A DNA stretch of 64,000 nt from Minisyncoccota bacterium (GCA_003173865.1 PJMF01000016.1:17347-81346); one strand, 5' to 3'; positions 3,075-14,089 are shown, numbered from the stretch's first letter. Translations and numbers: made by a program. Notes: generated by a model not told the origin, from the letters alone.

Positions 3075-4298
3075 ATGGATTTTTTTGAACTTTTTAACCA
3101 ATCTATCAAAGCACTTTCGCTCAATAAGTTGCGAACTGGTTTAGCGACGTTGGGTATCGTAATTGGTATTGGAAGTGTGATTACACTGGTGTCTTTGGGT
3201 GAAGCGAGCCAACAATCAATTCAAAATAATATTCAGTCGTTGGGTGCCAATCTGCTCACTGTGAGTCCGGGATCTCAACAACAAGGAGGAGTTCGAAGTG
3301 CTGCAGGGAGTAGTCAGACATTAACAAATGATGATGCCGCGGCAATTAAAAGTGCTCCTCAAATTACCACTGTCAGTGCAGTTTCACCCGAAATTGATCA
3401 ACGGGCTCAGGTTTCTGCAGGTCGCAATAACTCAAACATTCGCATTAACGGAGTAGTGTCTGCATATGCAAGCGTACATAAAGTGACAATGGATAGCGGT
3501 GTATTTATTTCTGACGAGGATAATACTGCTGGTCGGAAGGTAATTGTTCTTGGTCCCCAAGTTGCTTCTGATTTATTTCCTAATGGAGTAAGTTCCATTG
3601 GTCAATCGGTACGAATTAAAGGAACAGCGTTTCAAGTTATTGGTGTGACTGTCTCGAAGGGTGGTACAGGTTTCTTAAATCAAGATAACGTCGCATATAT
3701 TCCTTTAAGTACAGCGCAAAAACAGGTGTTCGGTCAATCATACTTAAGTGATATTTCATTAGAAGCTAAAACTTCTGACGTGATGACGCAAGCGCAGAAT
3801 GAAGTGGGATATTTACTGCTTGCGCGGCATAAACTCTCTGATCCCGCAAGAGCAGATTTTAGTATTTTGTCACAAGCGGATATTTTAAGTACGGCATCTT
3901 CGACGACTGGAACTTTTACAGCATTGCTCGCCGGTATTGCAGGTATTTCTTTACTCGTGGGTGGCATCGGCATTATGAACATCATGTTAATGTCCGTGAC
4001 TGAACGGACTCGTGAAATTGGTTTGCGTAAAGCACTGGGCGCGAAAAAGAAAACAATCATTACACAGTTTTTATTTGAGTCGATTATTTTGACGTTCACA
4101 GGTGGATTGATCGGAATTTTCCTCGGTATTATTGCGTCGTATATATACTCGTATATGACAGCATCGCTGTTTGTTCTCTCGTTTTCGTCAATTTTGATTG
4201 CATTTGTGGTGTCAGCCGCAATTGGCATTATTTTCGGATGGTATCCCGCTTCCAGAGCATCGAATTTGCAACCAATTGAAGCACTAAGATACGAGTAA
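3075..4298 (+). CDS. ABC transporter permease, MacB/FtsX family (MacB_PCD + FtsX)
   Basis: N-terminal TM, a large periplasmic domain, and a C-terminal FtsX 4-TM region (GIMNIMLMSVTERTREIGLRKALGA). Confidence 0.85.
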   Translation: MDFFELFNQSIKALSLNKLRTGLATLGIVIGIGSVITLVSLGEASQQSIQNNIQSLGANLLTVSPGSQQQGGVRSAAGSSQTLTNDDAAAIKSAPQITTVSAVSPEIDQRAQVSAGRNNSNIRINGVVSAYASVHKVTMDSGVFISDEDNTAGRKVIVLGPQVASDLFPNGVSSIGQSVRIKGTAFQVIGVTVSKGGTGFLNQDNVAYIPLSTAQKQVFGQSYLSDISLEAKTSDVMTQAQNEVGYLLLARHKLSDPARADFSILSQADILSTASSTTGTFTALLAGIAGISLLVGGIGIMNIMLMSVTERTREIGLRKALGAKKKTIITQFLFESIILTFTGGLIGIFLGIIASYIYSYMTASLFVLSFSSILIAFVVSAAIGIIFGWYPASRASNLQPIEALRYE

Positions 4299-4800: not shown

Positions 4801-5844
4801 ATGTTTCGAGTAAAATTACTGCTAGTTGCTGGAGTAGGTGTGCTATTCAGTGCGTTTTTAGTAATCGCATTTCGTCAGCAGCTGCAAAATGCTTTTTTTG
4901 CGAACCTAAGCCGATTTGGAACTGCTCAGCTTCATTTACAAGTTGTGCAAGATGTCCCTCTGACGGGGACTGCATCTCGTTTTGATTATCAAGCAGTGGA
5001 TGCCGAGCATCATCGTCTCTATATTGCTCATGAAAATGATGACCGAGTGACTGTCGTTGATACGCAAGAACGCAGAGTCATTGGCGACGTCACGGATATC
5101 GCGTATCCACACGGAGTAATTTTGATTCCACAACTCAAAAGAGTGTACGCAACCGCCGAAGGAACGAATGAAGTTGTCGTCTTTGATGCGGAAACATTAA
5201 AAATACTCAATCGAGTGGCAATCGGCAAAATTCCTGATGGTTTGACGTATGATCCAAACTCAAATCAGATTTTTGTTTCAACTGAAGGTGAAGACGCGGT
5301 TTCGGTAATGAATGTGGCAACGAATAAATTTGTGACCAGAATTCCAGTTGGTAAGCGGGTAGGGAATTCGCACTATGATGATGTCTCTAAACACGTTTTT
5401 ACAACAGTAGGAAATGAAAATGCATTGGTTGAGATAGATCCTGTGCACAATCAAATGATTGGAAAGTATGATATGACTGGATGCGACCATCCGCACGGAT
5501 TTGCGATTGCGTCGTTCAATCATACGGCGTATGTAACATGTGAACACAATAACGTGATGCTCGTCTTCGATTTAAACTCGAAAAAAATTCTTCAAAAAGA
5601 GTCGGTAGGTTTCACACCAGATGTAGTGGATTTCGATCCAGGAACCAAAAAACTTTACGTGGGTTCGGAGAGTGGTATCGTGGCGATTTTCGAAGCCAGC
5701 GATACAGGCGTGAAAAAGTTAGGGTGGAACTTTCTTGTCCGGCATGCACATTCAGTTGCAGTGAACCCGATGACTCATGAACTCTACGTGCCCGTAGATG
5801 ACTTGGATGGAAAGCCCGCGCTGAGAATTTTCAAACCGCTATAA
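4801..5844 (+). CDS. YVTN/YncE-like beta-propeller repeat protein, membrane anchored
   Basis: N-terminal TM helix. Repeated roughly 40 aa units with YxTxxGxxxVxVxD signatures (YATAEGTNEVVVFDAETLK, IFVSTEGEDAVSVMNVATNK). Confidence 0.65.
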   Translation: MFRVKLLLVAGVGVLFSAFLVIAFRQQLQNAFFANLSRFGTAQLHLQVVQDVPLTGTASRFDYQAVDAEHHRLYIAHENDDRVTVVDTQERRVIGDVTDIAYPHGVILIPQLKRVYATAEGTNEVVVFDAETLKILNRVAIGKIPDGLTYDPNSNQIFVSTEGEDAVSVMNVATNKFVTRIPVGKRVGNSHYDDVSKHVFTTVGNENALVEIDPVHNQMIGKYDMTGCDHPHGFAIASFNHTAYVTCEHNNVMLVFDLNSKKILQKESVGFTPDVVDFDPGTKKLYVGSESGIVAIFEASDTGVKKLGWNFLVRHAHSVAVNPMTHELYVPVDDLDGKPALRIFKPL

Positions 5845-5850
5845 AATCTA

Positions 5851-7086
5851 TTAATCAACAAAAGTCAAAGCAACCCCTTTTTTATTTGCGCGACCAGTAC
5901 GGCCAATACGATGGGTGTAGTCTTCAAATGTTTCAGGCAGATCGTAGTTGATGACGTGCGTGACTCTATCGATGTCTAAGCCACGGGACGCAACGTCTGT
6001 TGCCAGTAAAATGCTGACGCGATTGCGTTTAAAGTCATCGATGGCGCGTTGGCGTTGGCCTTGCGATTTGTTGCCGTGAATGACTGCTAGGCGGAAACCG
6101 CGTCTGTCTAATGCATCGGCTAATCTTTCTACGCCGCGTTTAGTGCGTAAGAAGATCAACACTTTTTCAAAACCTTCTTGTTTTAATAAATCTTGGAGCA
6201 CTGTGACTTTGTCGCGACCGGCAATTCGGACGACATCTTGGTCGACGTTGTCAGAAGTGGGGCGTGTTTTGACCGAGATTGAGATAGGATTATGTAAAAA
6301 GCTTTTCATCAAACGTTGTGCTTCATCTGGCAGAGTCGCTGAGAAAAACAACGATTGACGAGTCTTTGGAAGTAACGCAGTGATGTACTTGACTTCATGA
6401 ATAAAACCCATGTCAAGCATCTGGTCAACTTCATCAAGCACAATATTATTGTAGTGGGCAAAGTTCAACGCATGTTGACGTTCAAGATCGCGCAAACGAC
6501 CAGGAGTACCAATCACGAAGTTTGGTCGACGTCTCATTTTCTCAATTTGGCCAAACATGCCCATGCCACCAATACACACTGCAGCATGCATACTCATGTT
6601 TTGCGCAAAGTGACGAAATTCTTGTTCAATTTGAACAGCTAACTCGCGAGTCGGGCAGATAATCAAGACTCGTTGATTCCGATCAAGAAAAACTTTGTTA
6701 ATTAACGGAATCAAAAAAGCTGCTGTCTTACCAGTACCCGTATTTGCCACCCCAACCATATCTCTGCCTTCTAAAAGTTGTGGAATTGCTTGGTCCTGAA
6801 TAGGTGTGGGGGCCTTGTAGCCGTGAACGGCAATATTATGTTTCAGTTGGTCAACTAAATTGAAGTCGGCAAACATGTTTTTTGGTACGAAAATTTCTTG
6901 GGGAACATCAACTGCTCGGCGAATAAACAAACGTGAATCCAGTGGTCTTGGCTGGCGACGCATTGGTCGGTAGGCGTGATAGCCTCTGCCACGTGGTCCT
7001 TGCCCACCGCGGGAGGCGCCATACGAAGGTCGACTACCACCATGAGAAGATCGTTGAGAAAATGAACGAGATGACTGTTGCTGCAT
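5851..7086 (-). CDS. DEAD-box ATP-dependent RNA helicase with an N-terminal RG-rich tail
   Basis: Q-motif, Walker A ANTGTGKTAAF, motif II as DEVD (in LDEVDQMLDMGF), SAT, HRIGRTGRA. Arg/Gly-rich N-terminus. Confidence 0.9.
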   Translation of the reverse strand: MQQQSSRSFSQRSSHGGSRPSYGASRGGQGPRGRGYHAYRPMRRQPRPLDSRLFIRRAVDVPQEIFVPKNMFADFNLVDQLKHNIAVHGYKAPTPIQDQAIPQLLEGRDMVGVANTGTGKTAAFLIPLINKVFLDRNQRVLIICPTRELAVQIEQEFRHFAQNMSMHAAVCIGGMGMFGQIEKMRRRPNFVIGTPGRLRDLERQHALNFAHYNNIVLDEVDQMLDMGFIHEVKYITALLPKTRQSLFFSATLPDEAQRLMKSFLHNPISISVKTRPTSDNVDQDVVRIAGRDKVTVLQDLLKQEGFEKVLIFLRTKRGVERLADALDRRGFRLAVIHGNKSQGQRQRAIDDFKRNRVSILLATDVASRGLDIDRVTHVINYDLPETFEDYTHRIGRTGRANKKGVALTFVD

Positions 7087-7155
7087 GAATAACTTTATGT
7101 ACCGTCTTGAGGAAAAAGAAGAATGTCCCGACTCTCACCCGCAAACGTAACCTGA

Positions 7156-7184
7156 ATTATACTGTACCATCAAGCAAAAAGCAA
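7156..7184 (-). promoter_or_regulatory. candidate sigma70-type promoter for the DEAD-box helicase gene (TTGCTT-17-TATAAT on the minus strand)
   Basis: -10 TATAAT at 7156-7161 and -35 TTGCTT at 7179-7184 (minus-strand sense), about 65 nt upstream of the start codon at 7086. Confidence 0.35.
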
Positions 7185-7218
7185 AAGTTATTGGGTTGTT
7201 GGAGGAGGAGGTTTGTTA

Positions 7219-7303
7219 GGGATTGGCTAAAAGATTCTTCTAAAATAAAATGCGCCGCGAAAAGTGCTTTAGCCAATCCCCTGACTCCGTTTGAGGAGTC
7301 AGG
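7219..7303. promoter_or_regulatory. two adjacent strong stem-loops: a 13 bp perfect inverted repeat (GGGATTGGCTAAA ... TTTAGCCAATCCC) plus a 9 bp-stem hairpin (CCTGACTCC-GTTTGA-GGAGTCAGG)
   Basis: Seen directly in the sequence. Located between the small Cys-motif gene pair and the helicase promoter. No U-tract follows on either strand. Confidence 0.4.
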
Positions 7304-7342
7304 GAAGAGGTAATTACTATGAAATGGTTAATGATGTGCAGC

Positions 7343-7585
7343 CTAGCGGCTGCACTCGATTTTCTCCGAATTCCATACTCCGCCCTGAGCGAAGCAAAAA
7401 TCCGAAGCTTGCTTGTCTAGTACGCTGCGTTGTGTTGCAACACTTACTAATGTTGCCTGAACGGTTGATAGATCCTTTCTCTCGGGACTGAACGCTATGA
7501 CTAAAAAAAGGATGACATAGAGTATCAGCAGAAAACTTATGATCCAATTAGCGGAGGCATTCCATAACTTTTTCCAGTTGCTCAT
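7343..7585 (-). CDS. small membrane-anchored protein with a conserved C-terminal Cys motif, paralog 2 of a tandem pair
   Basis: 80 aa with an N-terminal TM helix. C-terminal ...FCFAQGGVWNSEKIECSR is shared with the upstream paralog. Its start lies 9 nt after the paralog's stop. Confidence 0.5.
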   Translation of the reverse strand: MSNWKKLWNASANWIISFLLILYVILFLVIAFSPERKDLSTVQATLVSVATQRSVLDKQASDFCFAQGGVWNSEKIECSR

Positions 7586-7594
7586 TTTTGGTTT

Positions 7595-7807
7595 CTACCT
7601 ATCGCACTCAAACTTCGTTGTATTCCATTTTCCACCCTCGGTGGCGCAAAATTCTTGCGCCTCTGTTGCAACGGCCATTGCCGTTGCCTTAATTCGAGGT
7701 AGCCCGGTTAAAAAATCCTGTGGCCGCAGTTTTGCGTCCACAACAATAAACAGACTAAGAAGAATGACCCAAAACAAAAGCATTAGGATCATCGGGTTGA
7801 AGAGCAT
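7595..7807 (-). CDS. small membrane-anchored protein with a conserved C-terminal Cys motif, paralog 1 of a tandem pair
   Basis: 70 aa with an N-terminal TM helix. C-terminal ...FCATEGGKWNTTKFECDR aligns with the 7343..7585 product (pattern A.VAT...FC..GG.WN..K.EC.R). Confidence 0.5.
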   Translation of the reverse strand: MLFNPMILMLLFWVILLSLFIVVDAKLRPQDFLTGLPRIKATAMAVATEAQEFCATEGGKWNTTKFECDR

Positions 7808-7871
7808 CTACTTGAAAACAAAGCCGCGGGGCATACCCACTTTTTTATTTTTAAGCAGAATTTCGCCCGAA

Positions 7872-7900
7872 AGTATATCAAAATGTGTCCCAATAGTCAA
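7872..7900 (-). promoter_or_regulatory. candidate promoter TTGACT-17-TATACT (minus strand) for the small Cys-motif gene pair
   Basis: -35 TTGACT (rc of 7895-7900) and -10 TATACT (rc of 7872-7877) with a 17 nt spacer, between the glnA stop and the first small gene. Confidence 0.4.
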
Positions 7901-7935
7901 TTTTTATAGGACGTAAGGAGGCCTACCAACTCGCC

Positions 7936-9369
7936 CTAAAACGAATTCCACAGCGCTTGATTAGTGACCTCATGGTGAAAGATCACTTCAGATATTTTAA
8001 CTGATGTACCAAGTTCTTTTGGACTTCGATCGGCGGCAGCTTGTTTGTAGGCCGCATATTTCTCTTTATTCGAACTGCCCAGAATTTTCTCAATAAACGG
8101 ACTGGCCTTAAAGAGTTTGAGAGCATCTGTGATAGTTCCTGGTAGGAAGCGCAAACGGTCACGTTTGTTTTCAGCTTTTTCGAGCTTTTGGCCCTCTAAA
8201 CCTGTACGCAGCAACGTATAAAGCCATAAATATGGATTTGCGTCCGGAGCCACTGAGCGCACCTCAATGCGGGCCGTTTTTTCATTACCCACCGGAATGC
8301 GAATCATTGATCCGCGATCAATTGGGGATACTTTAATTTGATTTGGTGCTTCAAAGTGTGGATCTAAGCGGCGATAGGCGTTTACGCTAGAATTTAAAAT
8401 CAAACAAATTTCCGGTGCGTGATTAAGCACTCGTGAAATAAAATCCCACGCCACAGAAGACAATCCTTCTTCACCTTTGGGATCGTAAAAAATACTTTTG
8501 CCATTTTTTGACAAAGAAAAATTCGTGTGCATACCGCTGCCGTTAATACCCATGATTGGTTTGGGCAAGAATGTGGCAGTCATGCCCATTTTGTTAGCGA
8601 CTTGGCGGCAAACTAATTTATATAACTGAATTTGGTCGCACGCGCGAATCACTTCAGTATAAGAAAAATTCATCTCAAACTGCGATGGTGCAACTTCAGG
8701 GTGATCTTTTTCGTTTTTGAAGCCCATGGCACGCTGTGCTTCGGCACAGGTGTCAATAAATTGGCGCAATTTGTCCATAGGAAGTGAGTGATAATACCCA
8801 CCTGAAGTGATCAATTGGAAACCAACCTTTTCATCGAAGTGCTGCTCTGCGTTGATGCCGTCAATCAAAAATCCTTCAATTTCGGCAGAAACATAAGGAG
8901 TAATACTTTGTTTTTTCTTCATTTGGGCGATATACATTTGCAACATACCGCGAAAGTCTGATTCATACTGTTTTTTATCGCGATCCATGATGTTTGCAAA
9001 CATCACCACTTTTCCCGGTCCAAACAGATCTGAAGGAAGCCACATCATGCTTGACCAATCAACGAAAAGACGGAGGTCGGATTCACTTTGCGCAGTAAAA
9101 CCGCGAATCGAAGAGCCATCAAACGTCAGATTGTCTGCAGATTCAAGTAAATATTTTTTGTCATAATCCAACATGTGGAAGCGGCCTTCAATATCAGTAA
9201 AGCAAAGTGTGACCGCTTTGATGCGTTTTTCTTTTTCTAAGTAGGTAGTATATTCTTGGCGCAGTTTTTCAGGATCTTCAGATAGACTTCTCTCTTTTGC
9301 CTTAAGATTCATTTCTTCAAGAGTATCGTAAGGGATTTCCAAGAAGTTGCGCAGAGAAGTGCTGTCCAT
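7936..9369 (-). CDS. glnA: glutamine synthetase
   Basis: GS catalytic-domain signature KPIMGINGSGMHTNFSL. 477 aa. SD AGGAAG upstream of the ATG. Confidence 0.9.
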   Translation of the reverse strand: MDSTSLRNFLEIPYDTLEEMNLKAKERSLSEDPEKLRQEYTTYLEKEKRIKAVTLCFTDIEGRFHMLDYDKKYLLESADNLTFDGSSIRGFTAQSESDLRLFVDWSSMMWLPSDLFGPGKVVMFANIMDRDKKQYESDFRGMLQMYIAQMKKKQSITPYVSAEIEGFLIDGINAEQHFDEKVGFQLITSGGYYHSLPMDKLRQFIDTCAEAQRAMGFKNEKDHPEVAPSQFEMNFSYTEVIRACDQIQLYKLVCRQVANKMGMTATFLPKPIMGINGSGMHTNFSLSKNGKSIFYDPKGEEGLSSVAWDFISRVLNHAPEICLILNSSVNAYRRLDPHFEAPNQIKVSPIDRGSMIRIPVGNEKTARIEVRSVAPDANPYLWLYTLLRTGLEGQKLEKAENKRDRLRFLPGTITDALKLFKASPFIEKILGSSNKEKYAAYKQAAADRSPKELGTSVKISEVIFHHEVTNQALWNSF

Positions 9370-9574: not shown

Positions 9575-10675
9575 CTAAAATTTCAAAAAGTTGCCAAAGT
9601 TGGCGTACCACGCATTGGGGCTGGTTTTTGACTTAAAAGTGGTGGGTGCACTCACAAACGCTTGCCAGCTAAATACGGACCGAGGTTTCCAGAGGGCTGG
9701 GCGTTTGGGTTTGACTGGAGCAATGGCCGGAATGCCAACAGGCACGACTACCACGTTTTCTGTACTTGGTGTCGCCGGTAGATTCTCCTCCAACTCTAAC
9801 GCAAAAGAACTGACTAAAGGAGTGGGCAGGGGTTTCTTCAGGACAGGACCAGTGATAAACGGACTGATGATCATGGGAGGTGTCACATTGCTTGGACTAT
9901 TTCCAGTTTGGTCACTGTTTTGCCCGTTGTCGGAGTTTGTTTGATCCGAGCTGTCGCTATTGTCAGGTGAGTTGGTAGTTTGATCACTTGAACCGGCAGA
10001 GCTCACGCTCGTGTCGATTGAGCCGGTATCTGAACTGCTGGTGTCGGTCGAGGTCGCACTGGTATCAGGTGTGGACGCTGAGGGATTTGTCGGTTGAACG
10101 GTTGGCGAAGGGCCGGGTGTGTCTTGAGAGGGTTCAGAAGGGTTCGGTGTCGCTGTTGGCGTAGCTGAAATCAACGGTAAAGAGGTTGGTGTGCTACTAG
10201 AATAGGGTGTGGCAGTTGGTAATGTAGATGGTTTGGGCGTGTTGCTGGGTTTGGGTGTCCCCGTTGAAGTGGGTGCTGGTGTCGGCGCCGATGTGGGTGG
10301 TGAAGTAGGTTTCGGTGTGCTAGTGACAGTCGGTAATGTAGATGGTTTGGGGGTGTTGCTAGGTTTGGGTGTCCCCGTTGAAGTTGGTGCTGGCTTTGGC
10401 GCCGATGTGGGTGGTGAAGTAGGTTTCGGTGTGCTAGTGACAGTTGATAATGTAGAGGGTTGGGGTGTGCTGCTAGGTTTGGGTGTCCCCGTTGAAGTGG
10501 GTGCTGGTGTCGGCGCCGATGTGGGTGGTGAAGTAGGCGCTGGCGTCGAAGAATTTGAAGGGTTTGGAGTAGGTGAGGTTGTTGTTGACCCCAAGATGTG
10601 AGTGGAAAACGTGGTTTGTTGAGCCTGAACAATCAGCGAAGTCGCAAAAAAGAAAAATAAAACGAGGCTGCGCAT
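9575..10675 (-). CDS. secreted Pro/Thr/Ser-rich (mucin-like) repeat protein
   Basis: Signal peptide MRSLVLFFFFATSLIVQAQQ. Three roughly 38 aa PT-rich repeats (TSPPTSAPTPAPTSTGTPKPS.TP.PSTL.TVTSTPKP), then an S/D/T-rich tract and a non-repetitive C-terminal domain. Confidence 0.7.
   Translation of the reverse strand: MRSLVLFFFFATSLIVQAQQTTFSTHILGSTTTSPTPNPSNSSTPAPTSPPTSAPTPAPTSTGTPKPSSTPQPSTLSTVTSTPKPTSPPTSAPKPAPTSTGTPKPSNTPKPSTLPTVTSTPKPTSPPTSAPTPAPTSTGTPKPSNTPKPSTLPTATPYSSSTPTSLPLISATPTATPNPSEPSQDTPGPSPTVQPTNPSASTPDTSATSTDTSSSDTGSIDTSVSSAGSSDQTTNSPDNSDSSDQTNSDNGQNSDQTGNSPSNVTPPMIISPFITGPVLKKPLPTPLVSSFALELEENLPATPSTENVVVVPVGIPAIAPVKPKRPALWKPRSVFSWQAFVSAPTTFKSKTSPNAWYANFGNFLKF
10214..10555. 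repeat. 3 x ~114 bp near-identical direct tandem repeats inside the PT-rich protein CDS
   Basis: The nucleotide unit gtaatgtagatggtttggg..gtgttgct.ggtttgggtgtccccgttgaagt.ggtgctgg... repeats three times with a few substitutions. Confidence 0.8.
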
Positions 10676-10923: not shown

Positions 10924-12666
10924 CTAATACTCATGTAGTATAAGGTTATAAAAGTTTGACTTTTTGCGCAAGTCCATATGTTTGCCGGTGTCGACAATCT
11001 TGCCTTTGTCTACTACAACCACCAGGTCAGCTTCGCTGATGACATCTAAAACATTGGAAACAATAATGGTAGTTTTGCCTTTGGTGACTTTGCCAATACT
11101 CTCCCAAATTTGTTGCCGGGTCCTCAGGTCGAGTGCCGACATCGGCTCGTCAAAAATATAAATCTGGGCATCTTTCAAAAACGCCCGAGCCAGCATCAAG
11201 CGTTGGCGCTGACCACCGGACAAGTAATTACCGCCATCCCCTACTCGAAAGTGGTAGCCACGAGGCAATCGTTCGATGAATGCATCTGCGCAGGCGAGGC
11301 GCGCGGCGTGGCGAACGTCTTCTTCGGTGCTGTCAGGTCGGCCAAACGTAATAATGTTGTAAATTGTATCGTTAAATAAGTTGCTATCCTGGGGTACGAG
11401 AGAAATATTTTGGCGAATGGTTTGGATATCGTACTCTTGTAACTGGTGTTCTCCGAGCAGCATTTTTCCGCAGCTTGGTTCATCAATCAGGCGTGGAATC
11501 AGTGACACGATCGATGACTTGCCGGAGCCGCTGACGCCAACGATTACCGACAGCTTGCCAGCGGGAAACTTGACTGAAATATCGCGCAAGATAGGCAAGC
11601 CTTCTTTGCTCAAGAGATTAACGTGTTCGAAATCAATAGTGGTATCAGTAACTTCCGTTAAGACGCCCGTATTTTTGGTTTGTGACTTGGCTTCAAAAAA
11701 ATCATTCATCCGTTCGACCTTGACGGCGTTTTCTTTAAATGTGGACACAGCGTAAATAATCGACAAAATGGGATTCGTTAAGTCATCGAGGTAAAAAATA
11801 AAAATGATGAGGAGACCAGTAGAAAGCTCATTGTTCATCACCAAAGACAAACCATAGCCAATAATCAATGAGTAGCTGACAGCAATCACTGCGCCGATAA
11901 ATAAACCAAGCAGTAAATTAAGTTTCTCCAGCTTCAAGTCATTCTCTAGCGACAGCCTCATCTTTTGTTTAAACTCAGTAAGTTCAGTTTTTTCGCGGGA
12001 AAACGCCTGGATAATCCGCAACTGCGACAGCGCTTCTTGAATAAATGAAAACACTGCGCTGTTCCAGCGCTCTGAGCGTTGGGTAGTGCTCACGATCCGC
12101 TTGTTAAAAAAATACAACCCAAACACCAAAAATGGCATTGCCATCAGCGATAAAATTGTCAGGTCAACATTAATGAAAAATAAAATGGACGTCATCGCGA
12201 GCACAAACAGCAGCGACGTAAAAATCGGCAAGATTCCCTCTTCGATCAGCGTGCCGAGTGCTAAGACATCATTTCCTAAGCGGTAGATATAGTCGCCAAT
12301 TTCTTGTGTTCGGTAAAAGCCAATATTCAGCTTTTGCAAACTCTCAAAAGCTGTTTGCGAGAATTGATAAATAATCGCAGTCGTGACCTTTTTAACACTC
12401 AAGGAGTACATGTACTGGACGATGTGCGACATCAGCATCACAAAGAAAAATATAAACACCACGAAAAAGCCAAATGTCATTTTGTTATGGAAAAAATTTA
12501 CAAATGGAATAGGATCATCACCGAGTACGTTGTCAATCAGGTATTTAAACGGGAGCGGCGAGATTGCTTCAAACACAGTGGTCGCCATCATCAACACAAA
12601 GACCAAAAACAGACGAGGTATCTGTGGGCGAAGGTCTCTCAGCAGAACTCTATTAACAGTTTTCAT
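10924..12666 (-). CDS. ABC exporter, fused permease + ATPase (MsbA/type I exporter family)
   Basis: Six N-terminal TM helices. Walker A GVSGSGKSS, signature LSGGQRQRLMLARAF, Walker B IYIFDEPMSALD. Confidence 0.85.
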   Translation of the reverse strand: MKTVNRVLLRDLRPQIPRLFLVFVLMMATTVFEAISPLPFKYLIDNVLGDDPIPFVNFFHNKMTFGFFVVFIFFFVMLMSHIVQYMYSLSVKKVTTAIIYQFSQTAFESLQKLNIGFYRTQEIGDYIYRLGNDVLALGTLIEEGILPIFTSLLFVLAMTSILFFINVDLTILSLMAMPFLVFGLYFFNKRIVSTTQRSERWNSAVFSFIQEALSQLRIIQAFSREKTELTEFKQKMRLSLENDLKLEKLNLLLGLFIGAVIAVSYSLIIGYGLSLVMNNELSTGLLIIFIFYLDDLTNPILSIIYAVSTFKENAVKVERMNDFFEAKSQTKNTGVLTEVTDTTIDFEHVNLLSKEGLPILRDISVKFPAGKLSVIVGVSGSGKSSIVSLIPRLIDEPSCGKMLLGEHQLQEYDIQTIRQNISLVPQDSNLFNDTIYNIITFGRPDSTEEDVRHAARLACADAFIERLPRGYHFRVGDGGNYLSGGQRQRLMLARAFLKDAQIYIFDEPMSALDLRTRQQIWESIGKVTKGKTTIIVSNVLDVISEADLVVVVDKGKIVDTGKHMDLRKKSNFYNLILHEY

Positions 12667-12844: not shown

Positions 12845-14089
12845 ATGAAACTCCACATCGCGATGATCTCTTTTCACACGTGTCCTCTTGCGTCGCAAGA
12901 AGGCAAAGAAACAGGTGGAATGAATGTCTACGTGCTCGAGTTATCGAAAGAACTCGCGCATGAGGGTCACATAGTGGATATTTTTACTAGAAGTCAGGAT
13001 GTCGACAATCCAGAAATTGTAAATGTTACTGAAGGTCTGCGAGTGATCCATCTCAAAGCCGGTCCGCAGACAAATGTTTCCAAAAAACAACTGGGAAATT
13101 ATCTGCATGAGTTTGAAGAACAGATGGTTCAGTTTATCGATACTCACCACGTGCGGTATGACGTATTGCACTGCCACTATTATTACTCTGGTCTCATTGG
13201 TCTTGAGCTCCAAAAACGACTGCCAACTCCGCTGCCAATCGTGATGATGTTTCACACGTTAGCGCTAATGAAAAATTTAGTTGCACGAACTGAAGCAGAA
13301 AAAGAAAATAGTGAGCGGGTCGATGCAGAGTTTTTATTAACGAAGAAAGTTCAAAAAATTATTGTGCCAAGTGAAAACGAAATGAAGTATTACCAGTACT
13401 TGTATGGTGTGCAGCAAAATCGATTAGCTGTGATTCCACCAGGGGTGGATGTGCACCTTTTTCACCCAATGTCCAAAAAAACGGCAAAGCAAGTAATTGG
13501 TGCTGATGAAGATCACAAAATTATTTTATTTGTCGGCAGAATTGAACCATTGAAAGGAATTGATGGATTAATTTATTCGATGAAAATTCTGACGCAAAAA
13601 CATCCGAACTGTCAAATCTGTTTGTGGATCGTGGGCGGTGATATTTCGCAAAAACAAGATCGGTGGTCGGCTGAACTACAAAAAATTGAGGAACTCAGAA
13701 GTCTACTGCACATTCCGACCGTAGTGAAGTTAGTTGGTCAGCGGCCACAAATCGAACTGCCGTATTACTACAATAGTGCGGAAGTAGTGGTGATGCCGTC
13801 ACACTATGAATCTTTTGGTATGGCTGCAGCTGAAGCAATGGCGTGTGGAGTGCCGGTGATTACCACGAATGTAACAGGAATCTCCAGCTTATTTGATGAA
13901 CGGCACAAGTCACTGATTACTTCGGTGAATAATCCTTTACTGCTTGCATCACAAATTGAGCATGTGCTGATGAATACCAAAGCGCATGCCGATATAAGTG
14001 TCGAAGTGCAGAAAAAAATTCAAGATTTAGCATGGCCGGAAGTTGCCCAACAGATCGTGCATGTGTATCGTGAAGTGATAGACTTCTAA
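12845..14089 (+). CDS. GT4 retaining glycosyltransferase, MshA/BshA-like (also resembles sugar-phosphate synthases)
   Basis: N-terminus MISFHTCPL...GGMNVYVLELSKELAHEGHIVDIFTR closely parallels the MshA N-terminus (MIS.HTSPL..GGMNVY). C-terminal GT-B E..E motif region (VVMPSHYESFGMAAAEAMACGVPVI). Confidence 0.8.
   Translation: MKLHIAMISFHTCPLASQEGKETGGMNVYVLELSKELAHEGHIVDIFTRSQDVDNPEIVNVTEGLRVIHLKAGPQTNVSKKQLGNYLHEFEEQMVQFIDTHHVRYDVLHCHYYYSGLIGLELQKRLPTPLPIVMMFHTLALMKNLVARTEAEKENSERVDAEFLLTKKVQKIIVPSENEMKYYQYLYGVQQNRLAVIPPGVDVHLFHPMSKKTAKQVIGADEDHKIILFVGRIEPLKGIDGLIYSMKILTQKHPNCQICLWIVGGDISQKQDRWSAELQKIEELRSLLHIPTVVKLVGQRPQIELPYYYNSAEVVVMPSHYESFGMAAAEAMACGVPVITTNVTGISSLFDERHKSLITSVNNPLLLASQIEHVLMNTKAHADISVEVQKKIQDLAWPEVAQQIVHVYREVIDF

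Follow-up and report, generated by a model that had tools for sequence, protein, structure and literature searches.

Two small open reading frames (ORFs) on the minus strand of a 64,000-nucleotide (nt) stretch of DNA from a Minisyncoccota bacterium (GCA_003173865.1 PJMF01000016.1:17347-81346; this whole stretch is hereafter the window) are, judged from their sequences, true paralogues and probably encode membrane-anchored mini-proteins that share a conserved C-terminal module with two cysteines. The proteins, here called A and B, belong to no described family, but their module matches that of a group of unannotated mini-proteins, itself undescribed in the libraries and papers searched, several of which are encoded directly behind toxin-like genes whose products end in the Pfam domain SAA. 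On the sequence evidence we lean towards homology of A and B with this motif family, without pressing the point. We further propose, tentatively, that A and B are orphan immunity-like binders at the cell surface, although the whole chain from expressed genes to a blocked toxin seems to us possible rather than probable.

The gene pair and its predicted products

An earlier note on this DNA had described minus-strand ORFs of 70 and 80 amino acids (aa) separated by a 9-nt gap, and both the coordinates and the lengths are as it claimed. The predicted features of the products, including an N-terminal transmembrane (TM) helix in each, are as follows.

7595..7807, minus strand: ORF A, 70 aa; TM helix ~5-26, helix 36-56 with Cys54, Gly-Gly turn, hairpin 60-62/67-69 with Cys68.
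7343..7585, minus strand: ORF B, 80 aa; Lys-Lys, TM helix ~4-32, helices 39-66 with Cys64, Gly-Gly turn, hairpin 70-72/77-79 with Cys78.

The two ORFs lie in one reading frame, with only a TAG and three codons between them (7586-7597). A further ORF of 10 codons (7808-7840, minus strand; VGMPRGFVFK) lies upstream in the same frame, its TAG abutting the start of ORF A.

The C-terminal similarity that the note had pointed out is borne out by BLASTP of A against B (E 9e-11) and survives alignment statistics: the C-terminal parts reach a Smith-Waterman score of 86, compared with 19.9 ± 4.1 in 5000 shuffles, the highest of which scored 44 (z ~16). Different codons are used at 11 of the 27 identical aligned residues, and the ratio of non-synonymous to synonymous divergence (dN/dS, Nei-Gojobori) is ~0.3 at a dS of ~1.3-1.7, which is near saturation. 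The similarity has thus been kept at the protein level, under apparent purifying selection, and is not a remnant of recent DNA duplication; together with the BLASTP and shuffle results, these values support the note's view of a duplicated small-protein pair. The motif C-x3-GG-x-WN-x2-K-x-EC occurs only in ORFs A and B across all six frames of the window. When codon usage was scored by log-odds, with 27 long ORFs of the window as the training set, the proposed frame came out best of six for both; the score of ORF A (0.07) exceeds the 99th percentile of off-frame windows and that of ORF B (-0.14) lies near the 95th. We consider it very likely that both ORFs are real genes, and they are probably co-transcribed.

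Each protein carries the N-terminal hydrophobic anchor that the note had assigned to it: the best 19-residue window has a mean Kyte-Doolittle (KD) hydropathy of 2.9 in A and 3.0 in B, and AlphaFold2 models both segments as TM helices. These segments look like permanent TM anchors. The two-Cys C-terminal module is likewise conserved in both proteins; it follows a 31-residue spacer, reads [DE]-F-C-x3-G-G-x-W-N-x2-K-x-E-C-x-R and is followed by the stop codon, so that each chain ends two residues past the second cysteine (Cys-2). Modelled with an alignment of the wider family described below, B forms a TM helix (4-32), two further helices (39-50 and 52-66) and a hairpin (70-72/77-79), with predicted local distance difference test (pLDDT) values of 92-95 over its last 20 residues. 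Modelled from the A and B sequences only, A has the same layout (helices 5-26 and 36-56, strands 60-62 and 67-69; pLDDT 79-84 at the end), and the predicted fold is the same with or without outside sequences. In the predicted structure the first cysteine (Cys-1) sits in the last turn of the helix and Cys-2 in the second strand, with the Gly-Gly pair as the turn between them. The models thus describe, for each protein, a putative displayed domain of ~45 residues composed of a helix, a Gly-Gly turn and a Trp-Asn...Glu-Cys β-hairpin. If this domain faces outward, a disulfide between Cys-1 and Cys-2 would staple the hairpin to the helix. For B, the Lys-Lys pair that precedes the TM helix suggests an N-in/C-out topology.

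A wider motif family and its toxin neighbours

The module extends beyond this pair. A DNA pattern for it (TGY-N9-GGN-GGN-N3-TGG-AAY-N6-AAR-N3-GAR-TGY, 39 bits), scanned in metagenome contigs, matched 11 stretches, compared with ~2-4 expected by chance (an estimate for uniform base composition). About four of the 11 look like chance, with in-frame stops or ORFs of only ~30 codons, and at least four belong to one family in which the motif comes right after an N-terminal TM helix. This arrangement is seen in L083, L086 and L091, and truncated or secreted versions in L085, L087 and L092. When a profile combining those stretches with the A and B C-termini was run against a collection of 5.8 billion clusters, it returned 51 proteins of 31-85 aa (P0002-P0052), all of them hypothetical and none with a Pfam domain. 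At least 40 unannotated proteins of 47-85 aa are built as a TM helix followed by IDSCLDxGGRWNYxxxC, and the family consensus comprises a Lys/Arg-rich start, the TM helix, ~11 residues and then f-x-I-D-S-C-L-D-[KL]-G-G-[RS]-W-N-Y-E-x3-C-E. Named sources of members include Algoriphagus namhaensis (P0010) and a metagenome-assembled genome (MAG) of the Polyangiaceae; the family has no entry in Pfam, NCBIfam or PDB.

Two variants of the architecture were also seen. On two low-GC metagenome contigs (L086, 274-921, minus strand; L091, 2164-2745, plus strand), the TM helix and CLDKGGSWN...C module form the N-terminal part of proteins of ~185-200 aa with an extra C-terminal domain of ~150 residues, for which FG-GAP or DUF5640 matches fell below cut-offs. 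The motif (CAEKGGTWNAEKGEC) also occurs in basic proteins of 77-85 aa that have no TM helix (MAFKM...KQK...; L092 1-141, P0007 and P0012).

Nine genomic contexts of family members were examined, and in four of them the mini-gene follows a gene for a protein with a C-terminal SAA domain, at a distance of at most 12 nt or with an overlap.

P0045 (L098): behind a gene for an Rhs-repeat protein ending in SAA.
P0015: behind a gene for an Rhs-repeat protein ending in SAA.
P0049 (L094/L095): behind a gene for a PG_binding_1 and SAA protein.
P0040 (L099/L100): behind a gene for a PG_binding_1 and SAA protein.

The toxin-mini-protein loci span 1455-4150 in L098, 3439-4234 in L099 and 3227-4255 in L094, and the upstream products match SAA with E-values of 1.6e-20, 1.3e-23 and 1.2e-30 (hmmscan). 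The SAA domain of L098 comes after the Rhs core and its DPxGL motif; the position after the Rhs core is the classic slot for a C-terminal toxin, with the immunity gene next to it. From this gene order, members of the motif family look like candidate immunity proteins for SAA-like toxins, of a family not yet described. The prokaryotic SAA domain (prok-SAA) has been described as a Lipocone-superfamily toxin tip of polymorphic toxins and is predicted to cleave the head groups of lipids, isoprenoid carrier lipids among them (Burroughs et al., eLife 2025, PMC12419801). The immunity candidate linked to prok-SAA in that work has one helix, four strands and four absolutely conserved cysteines (PMC12419801), whereas the module of A and B has two cysteines, two strands and one helix; the four cysteines and four strands indicate that the published candidate is not the motif family, and the motif was not found in the text of that paper or in its 37 supplementary files.

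Several comparisons bear on whether the window pair belongs to this family. Against a profile of 43 members from which the window sequences were left out, B scored 16.8 bits (E 3.6e-4) and A 15.8 bits (E 7e-4), ranking first and second among window ORFs of at least 25 aa, with the next at E 0.31. An hhalign comparison of the A and B alignment with the family gave 82.5% probability (P 1e-5) over 20 columns; the A and B profile did not recover the family at E <= 0.001 in an exhaustive search. A (70 aa) and B (80 aa) share with family members (47-85 aa) their size, a single N-terminal TM helix and, near the C-terminus, C-x3-G-G-x-W-N-x5-C with identical spacing, the likeness in this motif being partly by construction. 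They also share an acidic residue at -2 from Cys-1 (Glu in A, Asp in B, Asp in the family) and, with at least one family locus (L094), an organization in tandem divergent copies. The acidic residue, the TM anchor, the small size and the C-terminal position of the motif are agreements independent of the search pattern. The Glu that follows Cys-2 in the family is missing, being replaced by Asp in A and Ser in B. Taken together, A and B look like a divergent, long-linker branch of the motif family.

The L094 locus is of interest in its own right: a second, divergent mini-paralogue of 69 aa (3810-4019; DSCLDNGSAWDEKLGEC) has the SAA toxin gene on one side and P0049 on the other and overlaps each of them, forming a tandem immunity-like pair that resembles the pair in the window. 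This paralogue scores only 23 bits against the family profile, which indicates that such divergence occurs within bona fide loci.

Searches with A and B themselves agreed with the note that the pair could not be assigned to a curated family, there being no match in Pfam, NCBIfam, PHROGs, PADLOC or PDB sequences. Pfam, NCBIfam, PHROGs and PADLOC returned sub-threshold noise only, including an AmaP match (E 0.013) over the TM helix only. MVL (PF12151) was tried and rejected as a relative, its 15-residue match having E 0.18 and 12.3 bits against a 25-bit cut-off and covering what we take to be a Cys-free part of that lectin; DUF333 (PF03891), which presumably carries a C-x3-GG motif, was also rejected, giving no match at E up to 10. 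A word-indexed search of the 5.8 billion clusters with B alone and with the A and B alignment found nothing, and a HMMER search of 1.84 billion representative proteins with the A and B profile found no relative, its sole match being a repetitive hydrophobic protein aligned on TM columns only and treated as spurious. A and B match each other at only 27 bits by phmmer (E ~0.3 at the size of the 1.84-billion-protein database), so relatives as distant as the paralogue are beyond detection in such a search. The exact A and B sequences have no record in the gene-call index queried, back-translated peptides gave nothing in metagenome and viral scans, and nothing came from tblastn against phages and plasmids or from the DNA motif in viral contigs. 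An exact-sequence look-up of glnA, the neighbouring gene, found only a 2.6-kb Logan contig that ends inside ORF A. Small ORFs escape detection: A and B are unrecorded in that index and were recovered by none of the protein searches. In the literature, the motif was not found, nor was any paper on orphan immunity genes in Patescibacteria.

Transcript signals and genomic setting

The transcript-level features around the pair, all on the minus strand, are as follows.

7872..7900, minus strand: sigma-70-type promoter-like site, TTGACT-17-TATACT with TG before the -10 box, matching the consensus at 10 of 12 positions, downstream of the glnA stop codon.
7807..7859, minus strand: predicted hairpin in the 5' untranslated region (UTR) of ORF A, its base touching the first base of the start codon; weak.
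7333..7357, minus strand: hairpin over the stop codon of ORF B, ten pairs and one bulge (GUGCAGCC GCUA GGCUGCAC).
~7304-7279 and 7278-7221, minus strand: two more strong hairpins, between ORF B and a gene for a DEAD-box helicase.

The earlier note had given the pair its own promoter; the site is indeed present, but two such sites occur in the region when 1.7 are expected from shuffles, so that the match itself is weak evidence, and transcription from the consensus match at 7900..7872 is plausible. The 5'-UTR hairpin encloses a short G+C stem followed by a T-run, which a terminator scan flagged at 7840-7826, and the 151-nt fold at this UTR has a z-score of only -2.0. The region 3' of ORF B is far more structured (z-score -6.9 for 7200-7360, with no shuffle folding as well). 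The three hairpins there probably end the transcript; no U-tract follows any of them on the minus strand within 7221-7357. On the plus strand, the palindrome over the ORF B stop codon was also flagged as terminator-like (palindrome and T-run at 7336-7355), and a promoter-like site lies at 7223-7251 (9 of 12 matches). Going by their positions, these two elements could delimit an RNA of ~100 nt that is antisense to ORF B at its 3' end. An Rfam scan of 6900-8100 gave no match, and no tRNA genes were found in the window.

A Shine-Dalgarno sequence is missing at both ORFs, as it is at most genes of the window. Boxes resembling TATAAT or TATACT occur ~5-12 nt from the start codons at 4801, 12845, 18981 (minus strand), 27325, 28582 (minus strand), 30390 and 31323. 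Such spacing suggests that leaderless or near-leaderless mRNAs may be frequent in the source genome.

The pair lies immediately downstream of glnA, as the note had stated: the gene occupies 7936..9369 on the minus strand, its end lies 128 nt upstream of the ORF A start codon and its product matches Gln-synt_C (Pfam, E 1e-76). When this product was searched in 185,579 species genomes, the closest relatives (73-77% identity) came from MAGs of Candidatus Levybacteria and Daviesbacteria, an affinity that places the window in a Patescibacteria (candidate phyla radiation, CPR) genome belonging to the Microgenomates group. Across 80 loci surrounding relatives of glnA there was no motif or profile match, and the two closest loci have different genes downstream of glnA; the adjacency of glnA and the pair is therefore not conserved. 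A link to nitrogen metabolism, suggested by glnA here and by GOGAT, NAD synthase and agmatine deiminase near three family members, was dropped when these neighbours proved not to be conserved and the toxin linkage appeared. Products 65-75% identical to that of glnA were also seen in MAGs labelled Gammaproteobacteria, Pseudomonadales and Nitrospira (L003, L008, L028, L030, L042 and L043), in addition to many CPR lineages, a distribution suggesting either that CPR contigs were mis-binned or that this type of glutamine synthetase has spread horizontally.

Other neighbours in the Pfam annotation include an HlyD/ABC/MacB exporter, a DUF5666 protein, a β-propeller and the DEAD-box helicase, together with a Pro/Thr-rich repeat protein, an ABC exporter lacking a C39 peptidase domain and a GT4 glycosyltransferase. 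The repeat protein (9575-10675, minus strand; 366 aa) has a signal-peptide-like start, long near-tandem repeats rich in Pro, Thr and Ser (TSTGTPKPS.TPKPSTLPTVTSTPKPTSPPTSAPTPAP) and no Pfam match, and is probably a mucin-like surface protein. The glycosyltransferase (12845-14089, plus strand) also matches the Pfam family GT4-conflict (PF20706) above cut-off (E 1.3e-21), a family annotated as occurring in conflict systems.

Competing explanations and known systems

In the chain we propose, the pair would be transcribed from the promoter at 7900, with termination at the hairpins, and the proteins would insert into the membrane with their C-termini outside and both cysteines oxidised. The module, going by the motif-level link to the family, would bind an extracytoplasmic partner, which by analogy would be an incoming Lipocone or SAA-type toxin domain, blocked at the membrane near its lipid substrate. 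Since no toxin gene occurs in the window, the pair would provide stand-alone protection; orphan immunity genes are common in polymorphic toxin systems. A narrower version, in which A and B are orphan members of an exceptionally small immunity family (~20-residue core) that neutralises prok-SAA Lipocone toxins at the membrane surface, with Levybacteria-like CPR cells as the targets, we consider unlikely, though not far-fetched.

Several observations weigh against an immunity role for the pair. An SAA-like or any other toxin gene is absent from the 64-kb window, and five of the nine family contexts have no adjacent SAA or toxin gene, the neighbours there being a lipoprotein, a response regulator, a MORN-like protein, an HTH/HEPN neighbourhood and a 2OG-Fe oxygenase. 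Searches of proteins, metagenomes, viral contigs and the loci of glnA relatives turned up no orthologue of either protein of the pair. The family link covers ~20 columns and involves some circularity, as possession of the window motif was the basis for selecting the seeds; moreover, the Leu-Asp that follows Cys-1 in at least 90% of members is missing (Ala-Thr in A, Phe-Ala in B), and the spacer between the TM helix and Cys-1 has 31 residues in A and B compared with a family median of 11. In codon usage, both ORFs fall short of typical genes (0.29 ± 0.09). Finally, no Lys or Arg precedes the TM helix of A, and the 15 residues that follow it include three, a charge bias that, by the positive-inside rule, would place the Cys domain in the cytoplasm and make a disulfide unlikely; the topology of A is thus uncertain, which is a real weakness of the disulfide idea.

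Some of these points also fit an alternative interpretation, that A and B are real small membrane proteins with a lineage-specific role unrelated to toxins, for example as subunits with an accessory or regulatory part in a membrane complex, and that convergence or chance accounts for the motif. We doubt this interpretation but take it seriously, as it draws on the same evidence for real genes (BLASTP, shuffles, dN/dS and codon frame), on the missing toxin gene and on the promoter-like site of the pair's own, and it would account for the long linker with a conserved AT...VAT segment that is not in the wider family, the missing Leu-Asp, a hidden Markov model (HMM) score of only ~16 bits and the empty exhaustive profile search. 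However, seven core residues are identically spaced, the acidic -2 residue is common to both groups, the architecture is the same (N-terminal TM helix, C-terminal motif, fewer than 90 aa) and L094 has the same tandem arrangement. It is improbable, in our judgement, that the ORFs are unexpressed, either as duplication remnants in an intergenic region or as a decayed gene split by an in-frame TAG. The low codon scores, the shared frame with a single TAG and three codons between the ORFs, the lack of an orthologue in the collections searched and the unrecorded exact proteins are all consistent with such decay, but dN/dS of ~0.3 at saturated synonymous divergence, the conserved motif, a proposed frame that is the best of six for both ORFs and a coherent fold predicted from the two sequences alone argue for functional genes; in addition, descent from a single ancestral gene is unlikely, since in a fused A-B protein the two homologous domains would end up on opposite membrane faces.

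The analogies drawn in the earlier note fared less well than its coordinates. It had likened the proteins to pilins, bacteriocins or signalling peptides, and on reading the sequences neither N-terminus has the class III signal of pilins (G-F/M...E5). That A and B are precursors of secreted peptides, of bacteriocin or signalling type, with the hydrophobic N-terminus as a cleaved leader, would suit their small size, two-Cys C-terminal module and tandem copies, as well as the ABC exporter genes within a few kilobases. We regard this as very improbable: the hydrophobic stretch is anchor-like (at least 19 residues, mean KD ~3) and is modelled by AlphaFold2 as one long helix continuous with the anchor, and inspection revealed no plausible signal-peptidase site of the A-x-A type, since A has no charge in its n-region and offers VVD|A, and the only A-x-S of B (AFS|P) has Pro at +1. 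Nor is there a double-glycine leader, the only Gly-Gly pair sitting inside the Cys loop near the C-terminus; the exporter at 10924-12666 consists of ABC_membrane and ABC_tran only, without Peptidase_C39; and no modification enzyme or immunity gene is adjacent and no curated family matches. Scarcely credible, to our minds, is a type I toxin-like system in which an antisense RNA overlapping ORF B at its 3' end would control two small membrane peptides. Small, hydrophobic, duplicated ORFs with a structured 5' UTR and very strong 3' hairpins would be expected of such a system, and the plus-strand promoter-like site (7223-7251) and terminator-like palindrome with its T-run (7336-7355) would delimit the ~100-nt RNA; however, that promoter matches at only 9 of 12 positions in a region where such sites are no more numerous than in shuffles, Rfam has no match here, and type I toxins are usually shorter than 60 aa and lack a conserved folded Cys domain.

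Serum amyloid A and Wnt of animals are relatives of the SAA-like toxin class, for which most targets and inhibitors are so far predictions. If the immunity reading holds, ultra-small and probably episymbiotic CPR cells would be hit by toxins of neighbours or hosts that act on lipid carriers or head groups, and would carry stand-alone defences, a first hint of defences against such toxins in CPR/Patescibacteria; ~50 hypothetical mini-proteins would also have a role that can be tested, namely as the smallest candidate module for immunity to SAA-like (Lipocone) toxins. If the motif link instead reflects convergence, A and B would be unremarkable: two small membrane proteins specific to their lineage.

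Polymorphic toxin systems are already known to include small immunity-like proteins anchored in the membrane, a familiar kind to which the toxin linkage of the motif family is a useful addition, whereas the link of the window pair is not secure. Like the immunity proteins of those systems, A and B are small and would be membrane-anchored, outside-acting and fast-evolving, and their putative relatives occupy the immunity slot behind prok-SAA; unlike them, and unlike some members of the motif family, A and B are not beside a toxin gene, the window holding no cognate toxin and the upstream gene being glnA. The predicted module also has a likeness in principle to cysteine-stabilised alpha/beta (CS-αβ) peptides, such as defensin-like peptides, in which a helix is tied to a β-hairpin by a disulfide.

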